Positions 230 through 9,533 of a DNA stretch of 30,865 nucleotides are shown one piece after another; position 1 is the stretch's first letter, and each line of letters opens with the position of its first letter. Position numbers and translations under genes: made by a program. The notes beneath the pieces are model-generated. The model ran no database searches, was not told where the DNA came from, and saw only the letters and a list, made by a program, of their open reading frames with translations. Location of the stretch: assembly GCA_016840855.1 (NCBI GenBank), contig JAEORO010000057.1, positions 1-30,865 on the forward strand, read 5' to 3'. The stretch is from Candidatus Thorarchaeota archaeon. Its GTDB lineage: Archaea; Asgardarchaeota; Thorarchaeia; Thorarchaeales; Thorarchaeaceae.

Positions 230-1717
230 TCAAGAGATTGGAAACCTGGCTTTAGCTTTGAGCTCAGAAACCCAATCAGCGAGGTATCTCACCCCAGGGT
301 CCTCTGCAAGCCGGCTGACCTTGAAGAGCAGCTCTTCGGCTTCTTCCTTTCTCCCTTGGATTAGACGGAGCTTTGCTTTCAGTAACAGTAGTCGACCCTC
401 AATTCCAGGGATGTCCTTCTCAGCAACTTCCTGCTCAAGTCGTTTCATCCAAGGTCCAGAATACTCATCTTTCTGAGGTGAGGTATAAAGAGCAATCTCA
501 CACTCAGTCAATGCACAAAGCGTGTCGTTCATTCGCCTTTGTCGTTCAATTCTCTCAGCGATTTCAAAAGCTCTCTCAAGGCTTTCCATCGCCTCGAGAG
601 GTCGTCCCTCCACCATTTCTAATAAGCCCCAGTTGAAATACTCAACTAGAAGATGAAACTCATCACCCGTCTTCAACAGTATCTTCCTTGCTTCATTCAG
701 ATATGTCTTAGCTTCATCTAGACGCCCTAGGTTCAGGAGAGATCTTGCAACATCAAAATATGCTAGGGGAAAAGCCCATGGGGTACTCATTGTTTTAATA
801 GCCATCTTTCCCCATTCCAATGCCTCTTCATATTCACGGATCTCATTAAGATTAACTGCCATGCTGTGAGGTATTTCACCCATTGTCGGTTCTCCAGCTT
901 TTTCCGCAAGGTCAATTAATCCTTGATAACAATCCAGAACCGCACTATACTCACCCCGCGCACTGTGAATTTGTCCTCTGATTCTGAGTGAATGAAAAAT
1001 CGATGAGGCCAAACCAAGTTTGTTAGCCAACTCATCAGCCTTTGAAACAAGCTGAAATACTCTGGTCGGTTCATGGCTTCTCAGAAGGAGAGCAATTAAA
1101 TTCAGCGCGTTGGACGCACTTACTTGGTCATCAAACTGAAGGGCACATTCATAACTCTCTGTCATGATTCGGGCTGCTTCTTGGCTGTCAACACGGACAT
1201 ATTGAAACGCTTGGACCTCCAGATAGAAAGTATTGAAACAAGCGAGTGCTTCACAATTCTCCATGAGTTGCTTCATCTTGTCTAGAGCATCAATATAGTA
1301 AGGATGGAAACGTCCCAGAATATCTCCGATTTCTGCAGCAAGATGATGCATATGTAATGCAATCCAATCATCAGGATTCGAACTGAGAACCAAATCAATG
1401 GCTGATTTAGCTTCATCATATAAACTAGGCATCTCACCATATTTCGCGTCCCTGAATAACAAATAGGGACGAGCCAATAGTGATTGGTAATGCTTTTCCC
1501 TCAAGCGTTCATAAATTCTAAAATTTTCGAGTAAGGTAGTGTGTATCGCAGCAAGATGGATTAGGTTATCTGTTGATTTCTCAGTACAAACCCGTTCAAC
1601 CAGTCGATCTGTAAAATCATAGTAGTTATACGCTGAATCCATGATGGACTCCAGTATCCTTCTAGTTTCATCATCAACGAATGAGAAGTACTTGGTTATA
1701 GTGCCTAGAGACTTCAT
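230..1717 (-). CDS. Large tetratricopeptide-repeat (TPR-like) helical protein
   Basis: 495 aa, all-helical, with TPR-like patterns (RGQIHSARGEYSAVLDCY, LNEIREYEEALEWGKMA, LLNLGRLDEAKTYLNEA, GRPLEAMESLERA). The N-terminus GTITKYFSFVDDETRR resembles, from recollection, an expanded Thorarchaeota family. Confidence 0.8.
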   Translation of the reverse strand: MKSLGTITKYFSFVDDETRRILESIMDSAYNYYDFTDRLVERVCTEKSTDNLIHLAAIHTTLLENFRIYERLREKHYQSLLARPYLLFRDAKYGEMPSLYDEAKSAIDLVLSSNPDDWIALHMHHLAAEIGDILGRFHPYYIDALDKMKQLMENCEALACFNTFYLEVQAFQYVRVDSQEAARIMTESYECALQFDDQVSASNALNLIALLLRSHEPTRVFQLVSKADELANKLGLASSIFHSLRIRGQIHSARGEYSAVLDCYQGLIDLAEKAGEPTMGEIPHSMAVNLNEIREYEEALEWGKMAIKTMSTPWAFPLAYFDVARSLLNLGRLDEAKTYLNEARKILLKTGDEFHLLVEYFNWGLLEMVEGRPLEAMESLERAFEIAERIERQRRMNDTLCALTECEIALYTSPQKDEYSGPWMKRLEQEVAEKDIPGIEGRLLLLKAKLRLIQGRKEEAEELLFKVSRLAEDPGVRYLADWVSELKAKARFPIS

Positions 1718-1760
1718 GGAAATTCAATTAATAGATATTATCGCCTCTCTGGTATAAATC

Positions 1761-1829
1761 GTTCCAATTTCGGAAATCACTGGTGATCTCAGAAGATAAG
1801 ACTTCGAACCATAGGACTTGATGAATCAA
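1761..1829 (+). pseudogene. Decayed fragment of an ACP gene, homologous to nt 3-50
   Basis: Translates as VPISEITGDLRR*DFEP*DLMNQ versus DDLRRKDFEPWDSMAH in the intact ACP. 36/48 nt are identical without gaps (1782-1829 vs 3-50, manual count). Two in-frame stops, and the catalytic Ser codon TCG is now TTG. Confidence 0.75.
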
Positions 1830-2269
1830 TTCTTTGGTTCAAGCTTCTGTACAGCACGTGCTGGATTTCCAGCGACGAGTGTCAGTGGTGGGACATCCTT
1901 ATTCACTACTGCACCTGCGGCAACAATAGCTCCCTCTCCTACAGTGACACCAGGAAGAACAATGGCTCCTGCCGCGAGCCAGGCTCCCTTTCCAATAACA
2001 ACTTTCTTTGGTCCCTCGTGAAAGATACGTCTTCTCTGGTGATACGGACTTGCACCTGAATGAGCCATAATCTTTGCACCTGGACCAATGCTGGCCCAAT
2101 CTTGAATCTCAATATATTCTGGATATTCACCATCAATCATGACCAAGAATCCCATGTAAACACCTCTCCCGACTTTCACACCACATCTCCTGTAGACACT
2201 TGCACGAAACTGGTATGACGGTGCAATCCAGGCTAGTATACGGAGGAATCTCCCAAGCAGTTTTCCCAT
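1826..2269 (-). CDS. Hexapeptide-repeat (left-handed beta-helix) O-acyltransferase, maltose/galactoside acetyltransferase-like
   Basis: VVIGKGAWLAAGAIVLPGVTVGEGAIVAAGAVVNKDVPP...VAGNPAR signature. Confidence 0.9.
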   Translation of the reverse strand: MGKLLGRFLRILAWIAPSYQFRASVYRRCGVKVGRGVYMGFLVMIDGEYPEYIEIQDWASIGPGAKIMAHSGASPYHQRRRIFHEGPKKVVIGKGAWLAAGAIVLPGVTVGEGAIVAAGAVVNKDVPPLTLVAGNPARAVQKLEPKN

Positions 2270-2275
2270 CTCAAA

Positions 2276-3193
2276 TCACCTAACTCCTCTTCTCCATAAG
2301 ACTCTTCTCAAATAATCTGAGAAGACCCAATTATCAATATCACCAGTTAGGAGAAGACAGAATTTGCTATCACTTTTCCATTTCTTATGAGAATTCCAGT
2401 ATTTCACTGCCTCTGTTGGAGTTGTACACCATGCCTCGAGGCTCTGTGCATGTTCAAACAGAGTCTCAAGACATCCAAGGTACTTCTTTTGCCCGATCCT
2501 GATTGGATGAAGATCGAACATGATTACTCCTCCAGTGGGTGCTACTTTTACAATCTCCCTCTTCAATACTCTGGACACGCTATCGGGGTCCATCCGCTTT
2601 CGATCAATCATAACATCATCACTCCAGACATTAAGTGGGATATAAGTAACACTTGACATCCGACCATGAACTTCCATTTGGAAGAAATGAGTCATCTCTC
2701 TATACTGGGGTCGGAATCCAAACCCTCCATCCCAAACAAGACCCGCATGTTCCAATAATACAGGCATATCGTCAGTGTAATTGTCATAGGGTGCCCTGAA
2801 CCCAGTTATTTGAACTCCTAGTTTTCTGAAAACCTGAAGACTTAGTAGCAAGTCTGTCTGTCTTGCTTGAGCGCTTATTGTAGGATATCTTATATGGTTA
2901 TACCCATGGCTTGCTACCTCATGGCCTTCCTCTTCGATTTGTTTGATTAGATCTGGATTCATTTTTGCTATTGCAGCAACTGTGGGAAAAGCAAAACGTG
3001 CATTGAATTCATCCAGAACGCTAAACATGTTGTTCAGAATTGTATTGAAAGAGGTCCGGTGGAGCTTAAGCATACGATAAAACTGCCTTGGGGCTTGTAA
3101 TCCCCATTTCTTACCAAGTTGTCCAATATAGCTCGAATCTGACAATATTTCCACCGTTGTTAAGTTGCATTTTAGCTTGGAGGAGTCTTTCAA
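2276..3193 (-). CDS. Polysaccharide deacetylase (CE4/NodB-like), apparently circularly permuted
   Basis: GHEVASHGYNH metal motif, GFRAPY, and IMFDLHP. A motif-1-like LLLTGDID lies at the C-terminus. Confidence 0.85.
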   Translation of the reverse strand: MKDSSKLKCNLTTVEILSDSSYIGQLGKKWGLQAPRQFYRMLKLHRTSFNTILNNMFSVLDEFNARFAFPTVAAIAKMNPDLIKQIEEEGHEVASHGYNHIRYPTISAQARQTDLLLSLQVFRKLGVQITGFRAPYDNYTDDMPVLLEHAGLVWDGGFGFRPQYREMTHFFQMEVHGRMSSVTYIPLNVWSDDVMIDRKRMDPDSVSRVLKREIVKVAPTGGVIMFDLHPIRIGQKKYLGCLETLFEHAQSLEAWCTTPTEAVKYWNSHKKWKSDSKFCLLLTGDIDNWVFSDYLRRVLWRRGVR

Positions 3194-3276
3194 AAGGATT
3201 ACGACAAGAAGCTTCTTGTTGTAATTTATGGTAACACTTATGCGAGAACAATAAGAACTATCGCTAAGGTGAGTCT

Positions 3277-3681
3277 ATGAAACTCAGTCATATAGGTATC
3301 ATCGTGAAGGATATCGAAGAGGGTATTAGGAATCACGAAGCGCTCTTTGGATACAAGCAGCTTAGCCCAATCGTGGATGATCATACTCAGAAAGTCCGAG
3401 TTGTCTTATTGGGTCACTCAGAGGACGCTCCTGTTAAGATTGAATTGATATCTCCTCTCACTGACGACTCCCCTGTTTCAGACCTGCTTAGGAAACGACA
3501 GGCACTGTATCATTTATGCTATTCAGTGCCAGATATTGAGGACGCAAAATCGAAAGCACGCCAGAGTGGCGCTACTGTAATTGCAAAACCAGTTGAGGCA
3601 TCACTCTTTAACAACCGAAAGATCTGTTTTCTATTCACTAAGGATCATTATGTGATTGAACTTGTTGAAGATGAACATTGA
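3277..3681 (+). CDS. VOC/glyoxalase family protein (methylmalonyl-CoA epimerase-like)
   Basis: LSHIGIIVKDIE...IELISP...LYHLCYSVPDIE...IELVE, giving the His/Glu/His/Glu VOC ligand set. Confidence 0.88.
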   Translation: MKLSHIGIIVKDIEEGIRNHEALFGYKQLSPIVDDHTQKVRVVLLGHSEDAPVKIELISPLTDDSPVSDLLRKRQALYHLCYSVPDIEDAKSKARQSGATVIAKPVEASLFNNRKICFLFTKDHYVIELVEDEH

Positions 3682-3689
3682 TCTTCTCT

Positions 3690-4601
3690 TTATTTTTGAG
3701 CAACGAATACCTTCGAGAAGAGATCGAAAAGGGGTTCAACGTATGTGGTGTTAATATCCGAATAGATATAATTACACATTTCAATGAACCGAGTTGCGCG
3801 CTCGTCAGCAAACTCGTCAATCCCTATGATTTTCCTCGCTCTCTTTGTAATGTCCTTCACTAGTCCTTTTGCGCTCTTGTCTTCTTCAAAGATGTCTGTT
3901 GTATCTTGTTCAATTCTTTTTAACTGGCTCTTGACACGAATGTCCGAAACATCATCAGCCCCAAAGCTCTTCACCACATCCATGAGAACATCTAGAATAC
4001 CATTATGTAGACCAGCGACCAGAGCTTCAATTTCATATGCAGTGAACCGAACCGTAGTACTCTCCCCACTAAGTTGCCATTTCAGGTCACTGCTCCTACT
4101 AACTGTTATTTGCCTTTGACCCACACTAATGATTTCATCGAAGAATCTTGATTCAATACTGCTCTTGATTGAAGTCTTTAGAATGGCGGCTTCGGGAAGT
4201 CTTAGCTGTATTGAGTTTCCTCCATTTGTGACAACAAGACACATCCCATCAGAAGGTGTTATCTTCTTGACATAATCGGAGGGTGGTGCAACCTCAACTG
4301 GTGGTAGATGTTTCAAACGTTCAGCTAATTGTCGAATTTCAGGTTCAGTACAAATGTAGGTTTGCCGGTCTCCTGAAATCGAAATCGTTCCATCATCAGC
4401 TCGTTCAAATGTGATTTTGTTTCCTCCACCGACATCTGTGGTCTTCAGATATTCCTGTTTATAGCTGCGTGCAGTCTGTGCAAGTTTATCCAAAGCTGCG
4501 GCAACCATATGGGCTTCTCCATAACCCAATGTGATTTCTGCAGTCCCCTCGGTTCCGCGGCCCAAACCAAGGGCACCATCTTTCCGTATCTTTATGTACA
4601 C
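3690..4601 (-). CDS. Hypothetical protein with four beta-rich/helix repeats (possibly PC4/Whirly/PUR-like) and a helical C-terminal domain
   Basis: Long ORF; likely GTG start at 4601 after a GGTGG RBS-like site. Recurrent motif: ITLGYGEAHMVAAAL / YICTEPEIRQLAERL / IQLRLPEAAILKTSI / VRFTAYEIEALVAGL. Confidence 0.7.
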   Translation of the reverse strand: MYIKIRKDGALGLGRGTEGTAEITLGYGEAHMVAAALDKLAQTARSYKQEYLKTTDVGGGNKITFERADDGTISISGDRQTYICTEPEIRQLAERLKHLPPVEVAPPSDYVKKITPSDGMCLVVTNGGNSIQLRLPEAAILKTSIKSSIESRFFDEIISVGQRQITVSRSSDLKWQLSGESTTVRFTAYEIEALVAGLHNGILDVLMDVVKSFGADDVSDIRVKSQLKRIEQDTTDIFEEDKSAKGLVKDITKRARKIIGIDEFADERATRFIEMCNYIYSDINTTYVEPLFDLFSKVFVAQK

Positions 4602-4710
4602 GACCGTCCACCATTTGAAACTAGGTTTTGCTTGCTGAAAACTATTGTGGCGATTTCGGTCCACAACAGAATGGTCATTAGAAGTCTAATTGATGAGGTC
4701 ACCTGGTGCT

Positions 4711-4890
4711 ATGACAGAAGAATCAACTCCTGAAAACATTATAGATGTCCCTGAAGCTAATCATGAAGTAATGGTCTGCCCCTTTACGAAAGGTAGGTGG
4801 AAGAAGGCTAGTGATGCTCTTATGTTTTTCATGATTTTTATAGCGCCAATTCTATTTCTGGTGTCTCTAATCATAACTAACCTGAACTAA
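4711..4890 (+). CDS. Small single-pass membrane protein
   Basis: 59 aa from ATG 4711, acidic N-terminus, C-terminal TM helix ALMFFMIFIAPILFLVSLII. Confidence 0.55.
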   Translation: MTEESTPENIIDVPEANHEVMVCPFTKGRWKKASDALMFFMIFIAPILFLVSLIITNLN

Positions 4891-4907
4891 TCAGCTAAGA
4901 AGTCGTG

Positions 4908-4932
4908 TGCAGAAGGCGTTTTACCTTCTGCA
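4908..4932. terminator. Hairpin between convergent genes (possible bidirectional terminator)
   Basis: TGCAGAAGG-cgtttta-CCTTCTGCA, a perfect 9-bp inverted repeat. Confidence 0.55.
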
Positions 4933-4942
4933 GTTATTGATA

Positions 4943-5302
4943 CTAAATTGAGTCTTTGACATCAAAAGCGAGAGTACCTGCTTCCTTTGTCTTGAGTGAA
5001 ATATCTATTGTATGCTCGCCTTCAGGAAGAGCATCTCCCGTGATGTGTATCTCTATTTCCACACCTACTTTGATTGGGAATGAGTTTTCCTCACTAATTT
5101 CAGATCCTTTGACTTCTCCATCTATTGATCTGATAATTGTTGAGTCAAGCGGGTACTCATTACCGTTCACCTTGATTGGTGCTACTGCAGTAGTAGTTCC
5201 TGGTGATAATGAATTTTTGAGTTTAAAGGAGAAACCATCCTCGACATTCTCGAGGCTTCCTTTGATGTATAGCTTCCTTAGGAGGAAAGCTGGGATTTGC
5301 AT
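4943..5302 (-). CDS. Conserved hypothetical beta-sandwich protein
   Basis: ATG 5302 with GGAGG RBS. IPAFLLRKLYIKGSLEN...GFSFKLKN...LPEGEHTIDI pattern suggests an Ig-like fold; function unknown. Confidence 0.7.
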   Translation of the reverse strand: MQIPAFLLRKLYIKGSLENVEDGFSFKLKNSLSPGTTTAVAPIKVNGNEYPLDSTIIRSIDGEVKGSEISEENSFPIKVGVEIEIHITGDALPEGEHTIDISLKTKEAGTLAFDVKDSI

Positions 5303-5461
5303 TTGTATTATAGCCTCCAACTATTTCTGTTTACGCCAACACTTTAAGCCAGCTTTTATAATTTCCGAAGTCACCTCGCACTAAATTTCTGTGTGTTTTC
5401 TCTACTTAAAACACTGCGGCCTTTCTAACAAAAGTAATAAGCCCTCAAGCATCGGCTGTAA

Positions 5462-5860
5462 TTGAAACACCACCTTCAAGGAGAGATATGGTCGCTGTTC
5501 GACTTCTTCAGTATATTCGATAATTTTTTCGGATCATTCACGTTATTGTTTACTTTCATCATGGTTTTTGTCATCGTTATAGTGATTGTTGTTGTTGTCT
5601 TTGCATGCAAAGCAGGTTCGGGCATTGCATCAAGTGTGGCACGCGGTTTTAAAATCGAAGCCCCGTCATTTGTCATTCCTGAGAGGTATCGAGGTGAAAG
5701 GCGTTCTGACGGGTCTGAAATACGAACTGTACGGCTCCCGGATCGGTGCCCTTCATGTGGAGCTGCAACAAGCCATGAAGGTATTGACTGGACAGGCCCT
5801 CTCGAGGCAAAGTGCAACTACTGTGGTGGAACTCTGAAGGCAACATTTGAACGAGTTTAG
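5462..5860 (+). CDS. Membrane-anchored zinc-ribbon protein
   Basis: N-terminal TM helix; C-terminal CPSCG...CNYCG. Start codon uncertain. Confidence 0.7.
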   Translation: MKHHLQGEIWSLFDFFSIFDNFFGSFTLLFTFIMVFVIVIVIVVVVFACKAGSGIASSVARGFKIEAPSFVIPERYRGERRSDGSEIRTVRLPDRCPSCGAATSHEGIDWTGPLEAKCNYCGGTLKATFERV

Positions 5861-6027
5861 AAAAATCCACTCCACCACCAATCAGACACATGTTTATCAT
5901 TTTTAATGATAGATAATGATGAGGACATCAGAGTGTAATATATATCCAAATATGAGGAAGCTTTTTCACTTGCCTGTCACGTCACATTAATCGAACCAGC
6001 GCCGCCGACTCGTACGAGGATAACCCA

Positions 6028-6303
6028 ATGGTCAATGCACTCGAAATGCAAGAGGATGGTACATCACTCTCTGTAGATATCAATAGAGAGAGCTTGTTAC
6101 CAGATCGAGTCTTTTGCATTGTAGATGACACAAACAAGAATGTGTACATCTGGTTGGGAAAAGAAGCTAATGTTCGAAAGCGATTCGTTGGAGCGCAAAC
6201 AGCAAGTAAAATACGTGGAGAATTAAGTACTGGTTTTAGGGTTCGTTCATTGGACCAAGGAGACGAGACCGCGGATTTTTTCAACTCATTGACGCGTGAT
6301 TGA
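6028..6303 (+). CDS. Single-domain gelsolin/villin-family protein (Asgard eukaryotic signature protein)
   Basis: LLPDRVFCIVDD...VYIWLGKEANVRKRFVG...DQGDETADFFNSL matches the gelsolin core (D-x-F-x-L-D, IYxWxG, QGxE-x-x-x-F). Confidence 0.88.
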   Translation: MVNALEMQEDGTSLSVDINRESLLPDRVFCIVDDTNKNVYIWLGKEANVRKRFVGAQTASKIRGELSTGFRVRSLDQGDETADFFNSLTRD

Positions 6304-6377
6304 CACAATACTAGGTCTCTAGTCACAGCCACAAGATTCTATAGAGCATCAGATATCAGACGTTAGAGGTCGCAACT

Positions 6378-7421
6378 TTGAGAGGACTAATGAAGACCGC
6401 CCGTGGTGTTGGAAATTTAGAGCTTTGGGAACTTGAAGTTCCAAAACCCAAAAGAGATGAGGTCTTGATTGAGGTGGCAGCAGCTGGTCTATGTGGCACT
6501 GATATTCATATTAAACATGACCAAGCATTCTACACTCCTCCTGTCGTTCTGGGCCATGAATATTCAGGGACTGTCATTGAAGTTGGGTCAGATGTGACAT
6601 CTGTGAATGTTGGAGCTCCAGTAGTATCTCCTGCAACAGCATACTGTGGCAAATGCTATCAATGTAAAACTGGTCACATGAATCGGTGTACTGCTGAAGA
6701 CAAAAGAATCCTTGGCACATCACGGGCAAATGGTGCATTCGCAAAATACCTTGTTGTACCAGATTATATTGTTCATCAAGTCCCTAAAGGAGTATCCATG
6801 GAAGAAGCTGCACTGGCTGAACCATTGGCTTGTGTGGTTCATTCTGTGATTGATACAACTCCAATTTGCCCAGGTGATGTTGTCGTTGTTCAGGGTCCCG
6901 GTACTATGGGTCTTATGGCAACTCAGGTGGCAAAGGCAATGGGTGCCGGAAAAGTAATAGTAACTGGTATGACCAGTGACCAATGGCGCTTTGATATAGC
7001 AAAGAGAATTGGCGCAGATATGACAATTGATGTTCAGGGACAAGAAGACCCAATTGATATAATTAAAGCTGAAACTGATGGTCGTGGAGCTGATGCTGTC
7101 ATCGAAGCATCTGGCGCTTGCATAGCTTGTACACAAGCCCTAGACTTCGTGAAGGTTGCTGGACATGTAACACTCCTAGGTGTACGTGGGCGTCCAGCTA
7201 CTATAGATCTGGATCCTATTGTCATAAAGGAACTCACAATGTCAGGAACTTGGGGCACTCTTCCTGCTACATGGGTCACTACACTTCGATTGATGTCGTC
7301 TCGAAAAGTGGATGTATCGCCGCTTATCACACATAGAATCTCACTCTCAGAATGGCAGGACGGCTTTGAGCTAATGGAAAGCCAAAAAGCAATCAAGGTC
7401 CTCTTCACAAAGTTTGAGTGA
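6378..7421 (+). CDS. Zinc-dependent medium-chain dehydrogenase (threonine/sorbitol dehydrogenase-like)
   Basis: GLCGTDIH, LGHEYSG, structural-Zn CGKCYQC...C, GPGTMG nucleotide-binding motif. Confidence 0.92.
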   Translation: MRGLMKTARGVGNLELWELEVPKPKRDEVLIEVAAAGLCGTDIHIKHDQAFYTPPVVLGHEYSGTVIEVGSDVTSVNVGAPVVSPATAYCGKCYQCKTGHMNRCTAEDKRILGTSRANGAFAKYLVVPDYIVHQVPKGVSMEEAALAEPLACVVHSVIDTTPICPGDVVVVQGPGTMGLMATQVAKAMGAGKVIVTGMTSDQWRFDIAKRIGADMTIDVQGQEDPIDIIKAETDGRGADAVIEASGACIACTQALDFVKVAGHVTLLGVRGRPATIDLDPIVIKELTMSGTWGTLPATWVTTLRLMSSRKVDVSPLITHRISLSEWQDGFELMESQKAIKVLFTKFE

Positions 7422-7438: not shown

Positions 7439-7789
7439 ATGTATCTAACAAAGGATTCTAACCCTGAAGAATACGAGGTCTATGATGCTTCTGGAGTGAA
7501 AGGTGTCCGACGAAAGCAATTTCTCAACTCTGAAAACTCATCAAAGAAATTCGCGATGCGTGCTTACCTTATTGAGCCCAGAGGTCACACAGCTTATGAT
7601 GTCCATTCGCATGAACATGGAGTTTACATACTAAGTGGAAAAGTAACTGTTAAGATAGGAGCTAAGGAACTACTTCTATGTCCCGGGGATGTCCTTCATA
7701 TCAGTGGGAATGAACCTCACCAGTTCTTCAACAATCACTCGGAACCTGTGAAATTCCTGTGTGTTCGAGATTTCACTTCTTCTCCCTAG
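7439..7789 (+). CDS. Cupin domain protein
   Basis: HSHEHGVYILSG...PGDVLHISGNEPHQFFN. Confidence 0.88.
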   Translation: MYLTKDSNPEEYEVYDASGVKGVRRKQFLNSENSSKKFAMRAYLIEPRGHTAYDVHSHEHGVYILSGKVTVKIGAKELLLCPGDVLHISGNEPHQFFNNHSEPVKFLCVRDFTSSP

Positions 7790-8126
7790 GTGCCCAAACA
7801 TCAAGACAGTCTTGCACAGTAGCTACGTGTGATGCCGCTGGTCCTCCACCCATGACTATTGCAACCGAACACGCTTCCATAATCTCATCTCTCGTCGCCC
7901 CAAGTGTTAATGCCTGCTTAGTATGATACACCATACACTCTTCACAAGGCGCGAGTACGGAAGCCACAATGCAGATTATCTCTTTGAACTTGGCTGAAAG
8001 GGCACCATCTTTATGAACTGCCTTCTGGAGGTCTGTGAATGCATTTCTTGTATCAGGAATATCTCGGTTAAGTGCACCAAAGTGTTTCATGAAACTTTTC
8101 AGCGTCTTTTCTACATCTTCTGTCAT
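7773..8126 (-). CDS. Carboxymuconolactone decarboxylase/AhpD-like protein
   Basis: GALSAKFKEII...PCEECMVYH...GATRDEIMEA...MGGGPA. Start reassigned to ATG 8126 (MTEDVEK) so that it does not overlap lplA. Confidence 0.88.
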   Translation of the reverse strand: MTEDVEKTLKSFMKHFGALNRDIPDTRNAFTDLQKAVHKDGALSAKFKEIICIVASVLAPCEECMVYHTKQALTLGATRDEIMEACSVAIVMGGGPAASHVATVQDCLDVWAPREKK

Positions 8127-8145
8127 TGAACTATCCTCAAATTCA

Positions 8146-8952
8146 TTATGCTGGTTTTCCCAGATTCCACTCGGACTCGGAATAGCGGCTTTGATATAAA
8201 GCCTGTGCAGTGTCCTTCTCTTCTTTCGAATAAGCTCCTCTTTCGATTGACCGTCCAGAAACTTTCTCAAGACTCTCTGTTATTACATTTTTAATCGTGC
8301 CATCTGAGGGGCATTCCCTAACATGGTCTGCTATATTGGTCACATCATCGCGTTTACTCTTCATGCATCGGACTCTAGTCCGATCACGTAGAAATACTGA
8401 CTGTCCTGAGGGTGGTGAAAGACTCTGTCGAAGCATCAGAAGATTTGCATTGATTAACAGAGTACCATGCAGAAAAGCAACCCCTCTCTTGAGCCAACCA
8501 GCTGTTCCTGTGATTTTCAGGTCATTTATTCTGATACATGAATGGCTAGGGTCATATTTTGTTGGAACGCCAACTGATTGAAGAGCGCTCGAGATAGCAC
8601 CAATGAATAACTCATAGATTTCATTCAATTTCTTTGGTACATAATCTTCACTTCGATTTGCACAGATTGAGAAGTTAAGGTTCCCGAGGTCGTGATACAC
8701 AGCTCCCCCTCCTGTGAATCTTCGAGCAATCGAAATCTCATTATCTAAGCAATAAGAAAGATTCACCTCTTTGTGAACACATTGAAATCTACCAATAACC
8801 ACTGCTTTGTCAGAACGCCAGAACCGAATTGTACTTTGTTTATCCTCTTGACTCGCGGCTACTCTAGCTATTGCTTCATCAAATGCGAGGTTCCAATAGA
8901 CATTTGTATTATCCTCAGTAATTAGCCGCCATTCCATGAGCATATCACTCAA
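8146..8952 (-). CDS. lplA: Lipoate-protein ligase A family (catalytic domain only)
   Basis: NLAFDEA, VVIGRFQ, RRFTGGGAVYHDLGNLNFS, KITGTA, HGTLL, terminal EWNLG. Confidence 0.9.
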   Translation of the reverse strand: MSDMLMEWRLITEDNTNVYWNLAFDEAIARVAASQEDKQSTIRFWRSDKAVVIGRFQCVHKEVNLSYCLDNEISIARRFTGGGAVYHDLGNLNFSICANRSEDYVPKKLNEIYELFIGAISSALQSVGVPTKYDPSHSCIRINDLKITGTAGWLKRGVAFLHGTLLINANLLMLRQSLSPPSGQSVFLRDRTRVRCMKSKRDDVTNIADHVRECPSDGTIKNVITESLEKVSGRSIERGAYSKEEKDTAQALYQSRYSESEWNLGKPA

Positions 8953-9022
8953 TTCTATTATGTCATCTGTTTCATGTATATGTCACTGATTAGCTTGTTG
9001 CATGAGCAAAATAAATTGGTTA

Positions 9023-9143
9023 GCCGGTGGTCAAAGAAGGTTGCTCACCACCGGCGGGAGGCCTCAGAGCAACATTTGAGGCTTGGAGCAGATGTCGTAT
9101 TCGAGGCTGACACGATTAACGCGTGTCAGTAATCCATCTGCTC
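9023..9143. ncRNA. Candidate structured RNA or cis-element: three stem-loops with complementary loops
   Basis: Stems 9023-31/9047-55 (9 bp), 9061-66/9077-82 (6 bp), 9086-94/9135-43 (9 bp) enclosing 9107-14/9122-29 (8 bp). Loops GTTGCTC (9040-46) and GAGCAAC (9067-73) are complementary. Confidence 0.55.
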
Positions 9144-9194
9144 TGTAGAATATAAGGTCACCAACTTTCTAACTGACGAAAATACATCATAAAA

Positions 9195-9533
9195 CTATGA
9201 TAGTATGTTACCACACTCATGGCAGGTCAGGGACCCAGGGCGGAGCTGAGTACCACAATACGGGCAGATTCTTCCCTTTGGAGGTGACTCGATATATGGT
9301 TCTGAATATGATTGTTGTGCGCCAAGTACGAATCTGCCTGATGTTCTAATATTTCGAAGACCAATTTGATCAGCATAGAACTCAGTATAACCACAATCTG
9401 CGCAAGTGAAGGACTCCAATGTTGCGGTAGATAATCCTGGTAGGTCAATCCTGACATAATGTTGGCCTGCCACCTTATGAGGTCCTGCTATCCTGTTGCT
9501 TCCGCACTTTGGACAAGTACTAGTATGAATCAT
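9195..9533 (-). CDS. Double zinc-ribbon protein
   Basis: CPKCG...CADCGYTEFY and CPYCG...CHECG. Confidence 0.8.
   Translation of the reverse strand: MIHTSTCPKCGSNRIAGPHKVAGQHYVRIDLPGLSTATLESFTCADCGYTEFYADQIGLRNIRTSGRFVLGAQQSYSEPYIESPPKGRICPYCGTQLRPGSLTCHECGNILS

Follow-up and report, generated by a model that had tools for sequence, protein, structure and literature searches.

A structured element between a zinc-ribbon gene and lplA

We analysed a stretch of 30,865 nucleotides (nt) of Candidatus Thorarchaeota archaeon (contig JAEORO010000057.1; hereafter the window) and, within it, a structured element in the gap that separates a zinc-ribbon gene (stop at 9195) from the lipoate-protein ligase gene lplA (start at 8937), both on the minus strand. 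Our comparisons with related genomes indicate that this element is very probably a real gene of a minus-strand RNA. The Asgard archaea are the closest prokaryotic relatives of eukaryotes, and to our knowledge almost nothing is known on their regulatory RNAs.

A preliminary description, made from the single sequence, had proposed a candidate non-coding RNA on the plus strand with four helices and a potential kissing loop. All four perfect inverted repeats are present in the sequence: GCCGGTGGT (9023–9031) with ACCACCGGC (9047–9055), GCCTCA (9061–9066) with TGAGGC (9077–9082), a long outer helix made of GAGCAGATG (9086–9094) and CATCTGCTC (9135–9143), and a nested one made of CTGACACG (9107–9114) and CGTGTCAG (9122–9129). 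The loop words GTTGCTC (9040–9046) and GAGCAAC (9067–9073) are exact complements; by hand arithmetic, two loops of 10 and 15 nt would share a perfect 7-nt Watson–Crick complement by chance with a probability of ~36 x 4^-7 = 0.002. The additional pairing GATTA/TAATC, both G–T extensions, the TATA-like word on the minus strand (CTTATATT, 9156–9149) and the higher GC content of the element (0.52–0.53 vs ~0.34–0.45 in the flanks) were found as well. Over the same 136 nt, the plus strand folds at −61.7 kcal/mol (shuffle mean −39.9, z −5.7) and the minus strand at −52.3 kcal/mol (z −5.4), and in either case 0/200 dinucleotide shuffles fold as well. The inverted repeats and the complementary loops are real and non-random.

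The idea of a non-coding RNA was borne out once homologs had been collected and covariation tested, and the result is a conserved structured RNA. What came into doubt, and does not hold up, is the choice of which repeats belong to it, and of the strand. The parts of the RNA gene, read on the minus strand, are the following (pairing figures are from the 50-sequence alignment described below):

9149–9156, minus strand: TATA box (CTTATATT; read as CCTTATATT over 9157–9149), near-invariant in 28/28 same-genus sequences
9128–9148, minus strand: promoter spacer of 21 nt, predicted to be untranscribed, conserved in length and variable in sequence; holds the outer-helix arm 9135–9143
9109–9127, minus strand: hairpin Ha, the predicted 5' end (GACACG, loop CGUUAAU, CGUGUC); 5/6 pairs with compensatory changes, 94% of cells paired (n = 50)
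9083–9108, minus strand: unpaired, almost invariant core AGCCUCGAAUACGACAUCUGCUCCAA, as given by alignments across genera
9061–9082, minus strand: hairpin Hb (GCCUCA, loop AAUGUUGCUC, UGAGGC; loop word GUUGCUC at 9073–9067); 6/6 pairs with compensatory changes, 98.8% of cells paired
9023–9055, minus strand: hairpin Hc (GCCGGUGGU, 15-nt loop, ACCACCGGC; loop word GAGCAAC at 9046–9040); 7/9 pairs with compensatory changes, 99.3% of cells paired
9008–9022, minus strand: 3' tail UAACCAAUUUAUUUU, a likely terminator; a pyrimidine/U-rich tract follows Hc in most genera

Three hairpins covary on the minus strand

Base pairing was evaluated in an alignment of 28 same-genus sequences and in a family alignment of 50 sequences. 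Since MAFFT misaligned the hairpins of distant homologs, we used model-guided alignments in its place; the family alignment is of this kind and is fitted to the model, hence leans towards it. In the genus alignment, Hc pairs in 99.6% of cells (4 compensatory pairs), Hb in 98.8% (3 compensatory pairs), and the core of 5 base pairs (bp) of Ha in 100% (2 compensatory pairs). In the family alignment, 97.7% of cells pair and compensatory changes are found in 18 of the 21 pairs. No shuffled control of this alignment (0/500) reaches any of five measures of pairing, and sliding the partners by 1–3 columns leaves pairing at 31–46%. RNAalifold, run on an independent plain MAFFT alignment, returns the same three helices. 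Across genera, stems that are wholly different in sequence are yet paired, as with GGGAGUGCG/CGCACUCCC replacing Hc.

The hairpins differ in how they are kept. Hc has 9–10 bp and is GC-rich across genera, the sequence of Ha varies, and Hb is absent altogether in genera g5, g6, g10, g36 and in one genome of g3. The length from Ha to Hc ranges from 71 to 119 nt, with a median of 105. The only strongly conserved sequence of the RNA is the core, with the consensus R-CCUCGAA-N2-6-GACAUCUGCUC: CCUCGA and GACAUCUGCUC are invariant in 33 aligned sequences of several genera, and all 50 family members still have them, with a few substitutions. The 5' arm and the loop of Hb resemble a partial copy of the core (GCCUC..UGCUC), so that there are two possible partners for GAGGC; folded as a single sequence, the predicted transcript takes the alternative pairing (−39.5 kcal/mol, z −4.2).

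The pattern of stem changes also bears on a reading of the inverted repeats as DNA, that is, as operators for a transcription factor controlling lplA. GAGCA-type half-sites do occur four times, in both orientations, and the block lies between two promoters. Nonetheless, the stems change fully between genera yet stay complementary, with G–U intermediates on one strand only, which is expected of RNA and not of DNA recognised by a protein; the core, the most conserved part, is not palindromic. We therefore regard DNA operators as highly unlikely.

The wobble pairs point to the strand. In the three conserved hairpins, 598/632 cells are paired on the minus strand (44 of them G–U), vs 568/632 on the plus strand (14 G–U). 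The wobble pairs of Hc are found only when it is read on the minus strand, and several stems are complete only by means of such wobbles, for example GCUGGCGGC/GCCGCUGGC and GCCGGUGGC/GCUGCCGGC. The plus strand of the preliminary description is thus not borne out, as the minus strand gives better pairing in the three hairpins and is also the direction in which the conserved TATA box points.

There are two points that speak for the plus-strand model with its four helices, outer helix and kissing loop: the fold of the single sequence is more stable on that strand, and within the genus the outer helix GAGCAGATG/CATCTGCTC pairs better on it, in 191/252 cells (76%; 50 G–U) compared with 147/252 (58%) on the minus strand. 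Yet neither the other genera nor the more distant members of the window's genus retain this helix, the plus side has no conserved promoter, and conservation ends sharply on that side, at 9019–9022. Together with the strand preference of the hairpins and the orientation of the TATA box, this makes the model very unlikely. The outer helix, as far as the alignments tell, is not part of the conserved RNA, and its arm at 9135–9143 falls in the promoter spacer, upstream of the predicted start.

A conserved kissing loop is not supported either. Both words are present and invariant in 28/28 same-genus sequences, which leaves no covariation to test, and neither word occurs in the other genera examined. 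Within the genus, the neighbouring loop positions vary while the words stay fixed, so that some constraint must act on both words, and a contact between the loops in the window's genus would be the simplest reading. By our own estimate, a simple coaxial kissing complex is disfavoured, because the 5-nt linker cannot span a stacked 6-bp stem, 7-bp loop helix and 9-bp stem. The comparison carries a caution, since the most striking features of the single sequence (the longest helix, the G–U pairs of the plus strand and the kissing loop) are unsupported as features of the family.

Promoter and predicted ends of the RNA

The distance from the TATA box to the first base of Ha is 21–23 nt for 21 of 22 loci outside the window's genus, and the spacing within the genus is the same; the remaining locus, L107, has no visible box. 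Elsewhere the box reads CCTTAAATT, GCTTAAATT or ACTTTAAATC, and CCTTATATT is also found among relatives. This spacing places the start of the RNA, as we infer it, near G9127; the calibration comes from an unrelated M3 peptidase gene, whose promoters in 28 genomes of the family (L146–L175) carry a CTTAAATA-type box 22–24 nt before the ATG. The regular position of this CTTAAATA box before the M3 peptidase ATG suggests that leaderless or near-leaderless mRNAs are common in the family, beside genes led by Shine-Dalgarno sites. At the other end, the 3' tail would terminate transcription.

An RNA family confined to one Thorarchaeota family

A BLAST search with positions 9000–9160 against 60 relatives matched 26 of the 27 other species genomes of the genus (E ≤ 4.5e-13, 78–91% identity over ~140 nt). 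The 27th, which is 71% complete, matches only at E 0.05, and outside the genus BLAST gives only weak fragments. Conservation starts sharply at 9019–9022 and stops at 9159–9162. Identity of the LplA protein falls as low as 55% across these genomes, and the element is therefore more constrained than its coding flanks.

More distant homologs were sought with the core and with covariance models. A scan of 185,579 species genomes for the core pattern gave 62 loci, and 33 of these have the whole element; they are records of Candidatus Thorarchaeota, Promethearchaeota or uncultured archaeon, in agreement with the Asgard origin presumed in the preliminary description. The remaining 29 are GC-rich bacterial sequences without the element. 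A first model (R1), built from the genus alignment, found one full copy in 65 of the 86 genomes of the Thorarchaeota family, in 10 of its 16 genera. It also matched partial copies in genomes G013 and G016, and a further complete copy in G020; this one lies on another short contig, which also bears lplA, and is probably due to strain redundancy in the bin. A second model (R2), built from 50 sequences, identified the RNA in 20 of 27 sampled genomes of the family, and gave one marginal match (E 0.0026) in 124 genomes from 26 other Asgard families. R2 was also applied, unfiltered, to the region upstream of lplA in negative-scoring genomes (12 regions). This added genus g6, by two genomes with E 9e-9 and 4e-8, and one weak candidate in g9 (E 0.0014); the nine other regions showed nothing better than E 0.35. 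The RNA gene is, as judged from these searches, confined to one Thorarchaeota family.

The preliminary description could match the element to no known family, and this holds: no Rfam 15 model matches at its gathering score anywhere in the window, and none at E ≤ 10 over 8900–9250 with permissive filters. No Rfam ribozyme model matches in either range, the comparisons gave no hint of the ribozyme considered in the preliminary description, and ARAGORN finds no tRNA or tmRNA gene in the window. Guide RNAs were rejected, in the case of the C/D-box type because the C box RUGAUGA is found in 0 of the 50 family sequences, and in that of the H/ACA type because the stems are continuous, without an internal loop, when the alignments are inspected by eye; in these, the three bases after the last stem vary (UAA, AAC, AUU, ACU, ACC). 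A coding gene was rejected too: the longest ATG-started frame in the sense of the RNA has a median of 6 aa, that of the opposite strand a median of 26 aa, and the alignment has 1-nt indels. In a full-text search of the literature, no title or beginning of an abstract pointed to this RNA or to any lipoate-linked RNA element. Within the limits of such comparisons, this is a genuine Thorarchaeota small-RNA family, absent from Rfam and present in ~66 species genomes.

The copy number of the element was checked as well. Its own assembly (3.36 Mb, 259 contigs, 92% complete) holds one full copy and otherwise two chance matches of 14–15 nt, and no related repeats were found within the window. As the relatives that carry it also have one full copy per genome, at the same locus, a dispersed repeat such as a miniature inverted-repeat transposable element (MITE) was ruled out.

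Genomic neighbourhood

The element is flanked by the following features:

9195–9533, minus strand: gene of a 112-aa double zinc-ribbon protein (Pfam zinc-ribbon matches); ends 38 nt before the TATA box and is not part of the RNA
8986–9000, minus strand: weaker TATA-like box CAACAAGCTAATCAG, read by eye, between the RNA and lplA
8146–8937, minus strand: lplA, lipoate-protein ligase catalytic domain (Pfam LplA-B_cat, E 1.4e-41)

We set the start of lplA at the ATG at 8937 (M-E-W-R) because its relatives begin with M-x-W-R. The order on the minus strand is zinc-ribbon gene, element, lplA and a CMD/AhpD-like gene, with carotenoid genes further upstream. The CMD/AhpD-like open reading frame (ORF) as listed (7773–8270) overlaps the end of the lplA ORF (8146–8952) by 125 nt. 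In relatives, the CMD match splits into two frames at about residue 45–50; the true start of the CMD gene is therefore probably further downstream and the overlap probably an artefact of ORF calling.

The gene upstream of the RNA varies: most of g1, g3 and g4 have the zinc-ribbon gene there, of which some genomes (L024, L026, L027) have two tandem paralogs, and g7 and g8 have a carotenoid gene. In two loci of g5 (L115, L116) and one of g7 (L110, genome G033), it is a same-strand gene of a 2-oxoacid dehydrogenase E2 with lipoyl and E3-binding domains. In those genera the RNA thus follows the gene of a lipoylated E2 and precedes that of the lipoate ligase. Such a place, next to lplA and to an E2 gene, suggests that the job of the RNA may be tied to protein lipoylation.

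The zinc-ribbon gene raised the question of a mobile origin, in which the element would be the relic of a MITE or of the omega RNA tail of a TnpB-type transposon. The 112-aa protein has two CxxC...CxxC zinc ribbons and a marginal match to the Cas12f1/TnpB TNB domain (27.1 bits vs a cut-off of 26.3, with no single stretch passing), and in genome G013 a TnpB-like ORF ends 12 nt before a fragment of the RNA. Against this, each genome has a single copy of the RNA, its chromosomal location is the same across 11 genera and it has its own promoter; the zinc-ribbon gene is absent beside it in several genera, and the case of G013 is an insertion into the RNA gene, not its origin. Copy number and synteny largely refute a mobile relic, which we consider extremely unlikely. 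The more specific assignment as a TnpB omega RNA was rejected on similar grounds: the upstream protein, with its marginal TNB match, has no nuclease domain, and the RNA has its own promoter, is single-copy and also occurs with other upstream genes.

The locus of G013 has an unusual history. Its RNA gene (L097, C21:42300–50300) is split by ~6.5 kb of inserted DNA (564–631, 632–7022, 7024–7046, 7092–7233). What remains beside the zinc-ribbon gene is the native promoter with the first hairpin and the beginning of the core. Another piece of the core, 20 nt long, is found 12 nt past the stop codon of an ORF of 447 aa whose zinc-ribbon domain is of the Cas12f1/TnpB type (E 5.9e-15). Just upstream of lplA there is an intact RNA gene, in which both the promoter and the first hairpin are different, and TACGAC is repeated at both junctions. 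In G016 (L031) the 5' part is replaced in the same way, and the displaced fragment is located on a separate contig. These features look like the trace of a mobile element that inserted into the RNA gene, with later restoration of the gene, by analogy with events at tRNA genes.

Linkage to lplA and the possibility of a leader

Among the 66 carriers of the RNA, 57 have an ortholog of lplA (49–85% identity) on the same strand and no more than 700 nt downstream. The nine exceptions differ in kind. In G011, ~1.66 kb are inserted between the RNA and lplA, starting inside the promoter-like motif of lplA. In G068 and G033, the RNA and lplA are on different contigs, and in two incomplete genomes lplA was not found. 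The four others are all of the genomes of g10 (4/4), which are without an lplA ortholog; their best LplA-like matches are 24–31% identical. Genus g10 lacks the whole lplA–CMD pair, yet its genomes retain the RNA, and the stems covary. All three g10 loci examined (L106, L107, L037) have a convergent gene next to the RNA, and two of them have a clear TATA box. The product of this convergent gene begins, by eye, like a gelsolin-type domain protein.

There are signs of a separate promoter of lplA. A TATA-like box lies 24–45 nt upstream of the gene, and a motif, ACAACA..TAATCAG, has been kept downstream of Hc at distances that vary; in one sub-clade it is found 24 nt upstream of the lplA start codon. 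The words GTTTAAT/GTTAAG, read by eye, similarly precede lplA in g3 and g4. In the window, CAACAAGCTAATCAG is probably the gene's own, weaker promoter.

These observations bear on the main rival to a free-standing RNA, a cis-acting 5' leader of the lplA–CMD operon. Such a leader (riboswitch, attenuator or protein-binding leader) would stop at the U tract or be read through in response to a signal such as lipoate status. It draws on the position of lplA, directly downstream and on the same strand in 57/66 carriers and 11 genera while the upstream neighbour varies, on the genomes without a U run before lplA, and on a switch-like property of the RNA, since the core GCCUC duplicates the 5' arm of Hb, the two pairings compete for GAGGC and the single-sequence fold picks the alternative one. 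But g10 (4/4) and G068 keep the RNA away from an lplA ortholog, with a convergent gene behind it in three g10 loci, lplA has a TATA-like box of its own, and in g5 the RNA lies 270–470 nt from lplA. Moreover, the RNA can lack an entire hairpin and its loops diverge between genera, unlike in aptamers, where the junctions and loops are the conserved parts. All in all, we find a leader unlikely.

When the element was compared with the features of known riboswitches and leaders, two of these failed to appear. The RNA is not always in the 5' leader of a gene that it could control, as g10 keeps it without an lplA ortholog and G068 has lplA on another contig. Nor are all helices retained with a ligand core: Hb is dispensable, the loops differ between genera, and only a linear unpaired block is invariant. 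The riboswitch envisaged in the preliminary description is thus unsupported, given that the RNA persists without an lplA ortholog in all four genomes of one genus and is followed by a convergent gene in the three loci examined there.

A proposed trans-acting RNA and its possible mode of action

We consider it reasonably likely that the element encodes an independently transcribed RNA that acts in trans. It would be the gene of a small non-coding RNA of ~105–120 nt, on the minus strand from ~9127 down to ~9008, with its own TATA-box promoter. Transcription would begin at the base of the first hairpin and end in the pyrimidine/U-rich tract after the last. The unpaired pyrimidine-rich block (..CCUC..CAUCUGCUCC) would be presented to purine-rich, Shine-Dalgarno-like sites of mRNAs, and in most genera loops bearing CCUC/CUCC would do likewise. 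In the window's genus, the two downstream loops have gained a 7-nt complement, which may fold the RNA more tightly. Independence from lplA is supported by the absence of an ortholog in g10, by the separation of contigs in G068 and by the apparent box of lplA itself.

That the RNA acts specifically by base pairing of an anti-Shine-Dalgarno type is a more tentative proposal, which we would rate below even chances. The genome uses GGAGGTGA-type Shine-Dalgarno sites, centred ~8–12 nt before the start (peak −14 to −5), and unpaired pyrimidine-rich segments could therefore plausibly mask them. A count over the loops and tails (1014 nt) of 22 representatives gave 40 occurrences of CCUC/CUCC vs 0.0072 per nt genome-wide, the enrichment being outside the window's genus.

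Several results weigh against a trans-acting RNA or against this mode of pairing. The ends of the RNA, its strand and the independence of its transcript are all deduced from sequence, the 20 sequencing runs that were located being DNA metagenomes throughout. The tight, co-oriented linkage with lplA over 11 genera fits a leader better than a free-standing small RNA. Some genomes of the genus are without a clear U run between Hc and the promoter-like box of lplA, and read-through into lplA is possible. The loops of the window's genus are without the CCUC/CUCC motif. The exact complement of the core would put GGAG 3 nt from the AUG, whereas real sites of this genome are at ~8 nt. The searches for targets were negative: the core pairs with the start region of lplA no better than with controls (mean −14.4 vs −14.3 kcal/mol, better in 14/31 loci), a genome-wide BLAST search for the complement of the core gave chance-level matches of 11–17 nt, all inside coding regions, and a search for GGAGCAG-ATG-like starts of long ORFs gave 361 loose matches with no pattern. 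RNAduplex, run with the core against 19,361 candidate start regions, ranked the M3 peptidase gene best (−28.6 kcal/mol). This site is not kept in 27 orthologs (−7.2 to −19.1) and was taken as a chance match; the gene is also missing from g3, g5, g6, g10 and g36, which carry the RNA.

The lack of a conserved antisense target brings in another mode of action, in which the same minus-strand RNA would bind or sequester a protein by its unpaired block and loop motifs. The partner might be an Sm-like protein on the U-rich tail, a binder of pyrimidine motifs, or LplA. The core is invariant at a depth where the stems change completely, and related motifs recur in loops (CUGCUC in Hb of g3; CUCUCC/CCUCC in g4, g7, g8, g10 and g36), which recalls RNAs that titrate proteins. 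Yet no candidate protein co-occurs consistently with the RNA, as the zinc-ribbon neighbour is absent in several genera and g10 is without an lplA ortholog. Protein binding is a possibility to which we give rather little weight, and within a trans-acting RNA we hold base pairing by the pyrimidine block to be somewhat more likely.

A more speculative proposal, which we regard as doubtful, is that of a riboregulator linked to lipoylation. The core would bind lipoate or lipoyl-AMP, the aminoacyl-tRNA-synthetase-like ligase LplA or the lipoyl protein E2, and would tie lipoate ligase supply to 2-oxoacid dehydrogenase synthesis. The adjacency to lplA in 11 genera, the position between E2 and lplA in two, and the alternative pairing of the core and Hb allow such a role. 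If true, this would be the first known case of an RNA sensing or controlling the lipoylation of proteins, and it would come from Asgard archaea. Whatever the mode of action, the linkage to lplA, and in some genera to E2, gives a concrete hypothesis of RNA control of lipoylation or of central carbon metabolism. With its invariant unpaired block of 25 nt, strong covariation and defined promoter, the RNA family is well supported. The RNA can be synthesised and probed directly.

Comparison with known regulatory RNAs

Like the aptamers of purine and guanidine-II riboswitches, the Thorarchaeota RNA has, in the window's genus, two neighbouring hairpins with complementary loops upstream of a metabolic gene. 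In contrast with these aptamers, it is without an enclosing helix or a conserved junction, its loop complement is found in one genus only, one of its hairpins is dispensable, and one genus has the RNA without the downstream gene.

The trans-encoded small RNAs of Methanosarcina, Haloferax and Sulfolobus are closer in several respects, as they share its size, a free-standing gene with its own promoter, richness in structure and a narrow lineage. There is no homology between them, and the RNAs of cultured archaea come from transcriptomics, some with verified targets, whereas the Thorarchaeota RNA is known from the comparison of uncultured genomes alone.

A further resemblance is with the C-rich small RNAs of Firmicutes of the RsaE/RoxS type, which act by base pairing with C-rich motifs. 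They too are short RNAs with several hairpins, their own promoter and a terminator-like 3' hairpin followed by a U/pyrimidine tail, and they repeat pyrimidine motifs in an unpaired stretch and in apical loops; such motifs could also mask the Shine-Dalgarno sites used by the Thorarchaeota genome. The Thorarchaeota RNA differs in being archaeal, in its TATA-box promoter and in its motif (CCUC/CUCC/CUGCUCC and not a run of C); there is no similarity in sequence or model (0 Rfam matches), and the loops of the window's genus carry a complementary pair instead of the motif. By analogy, the Thorarchaeota RNA may work like the base-pairing C-rich small RNAs of Firmicutes without belonging to them.

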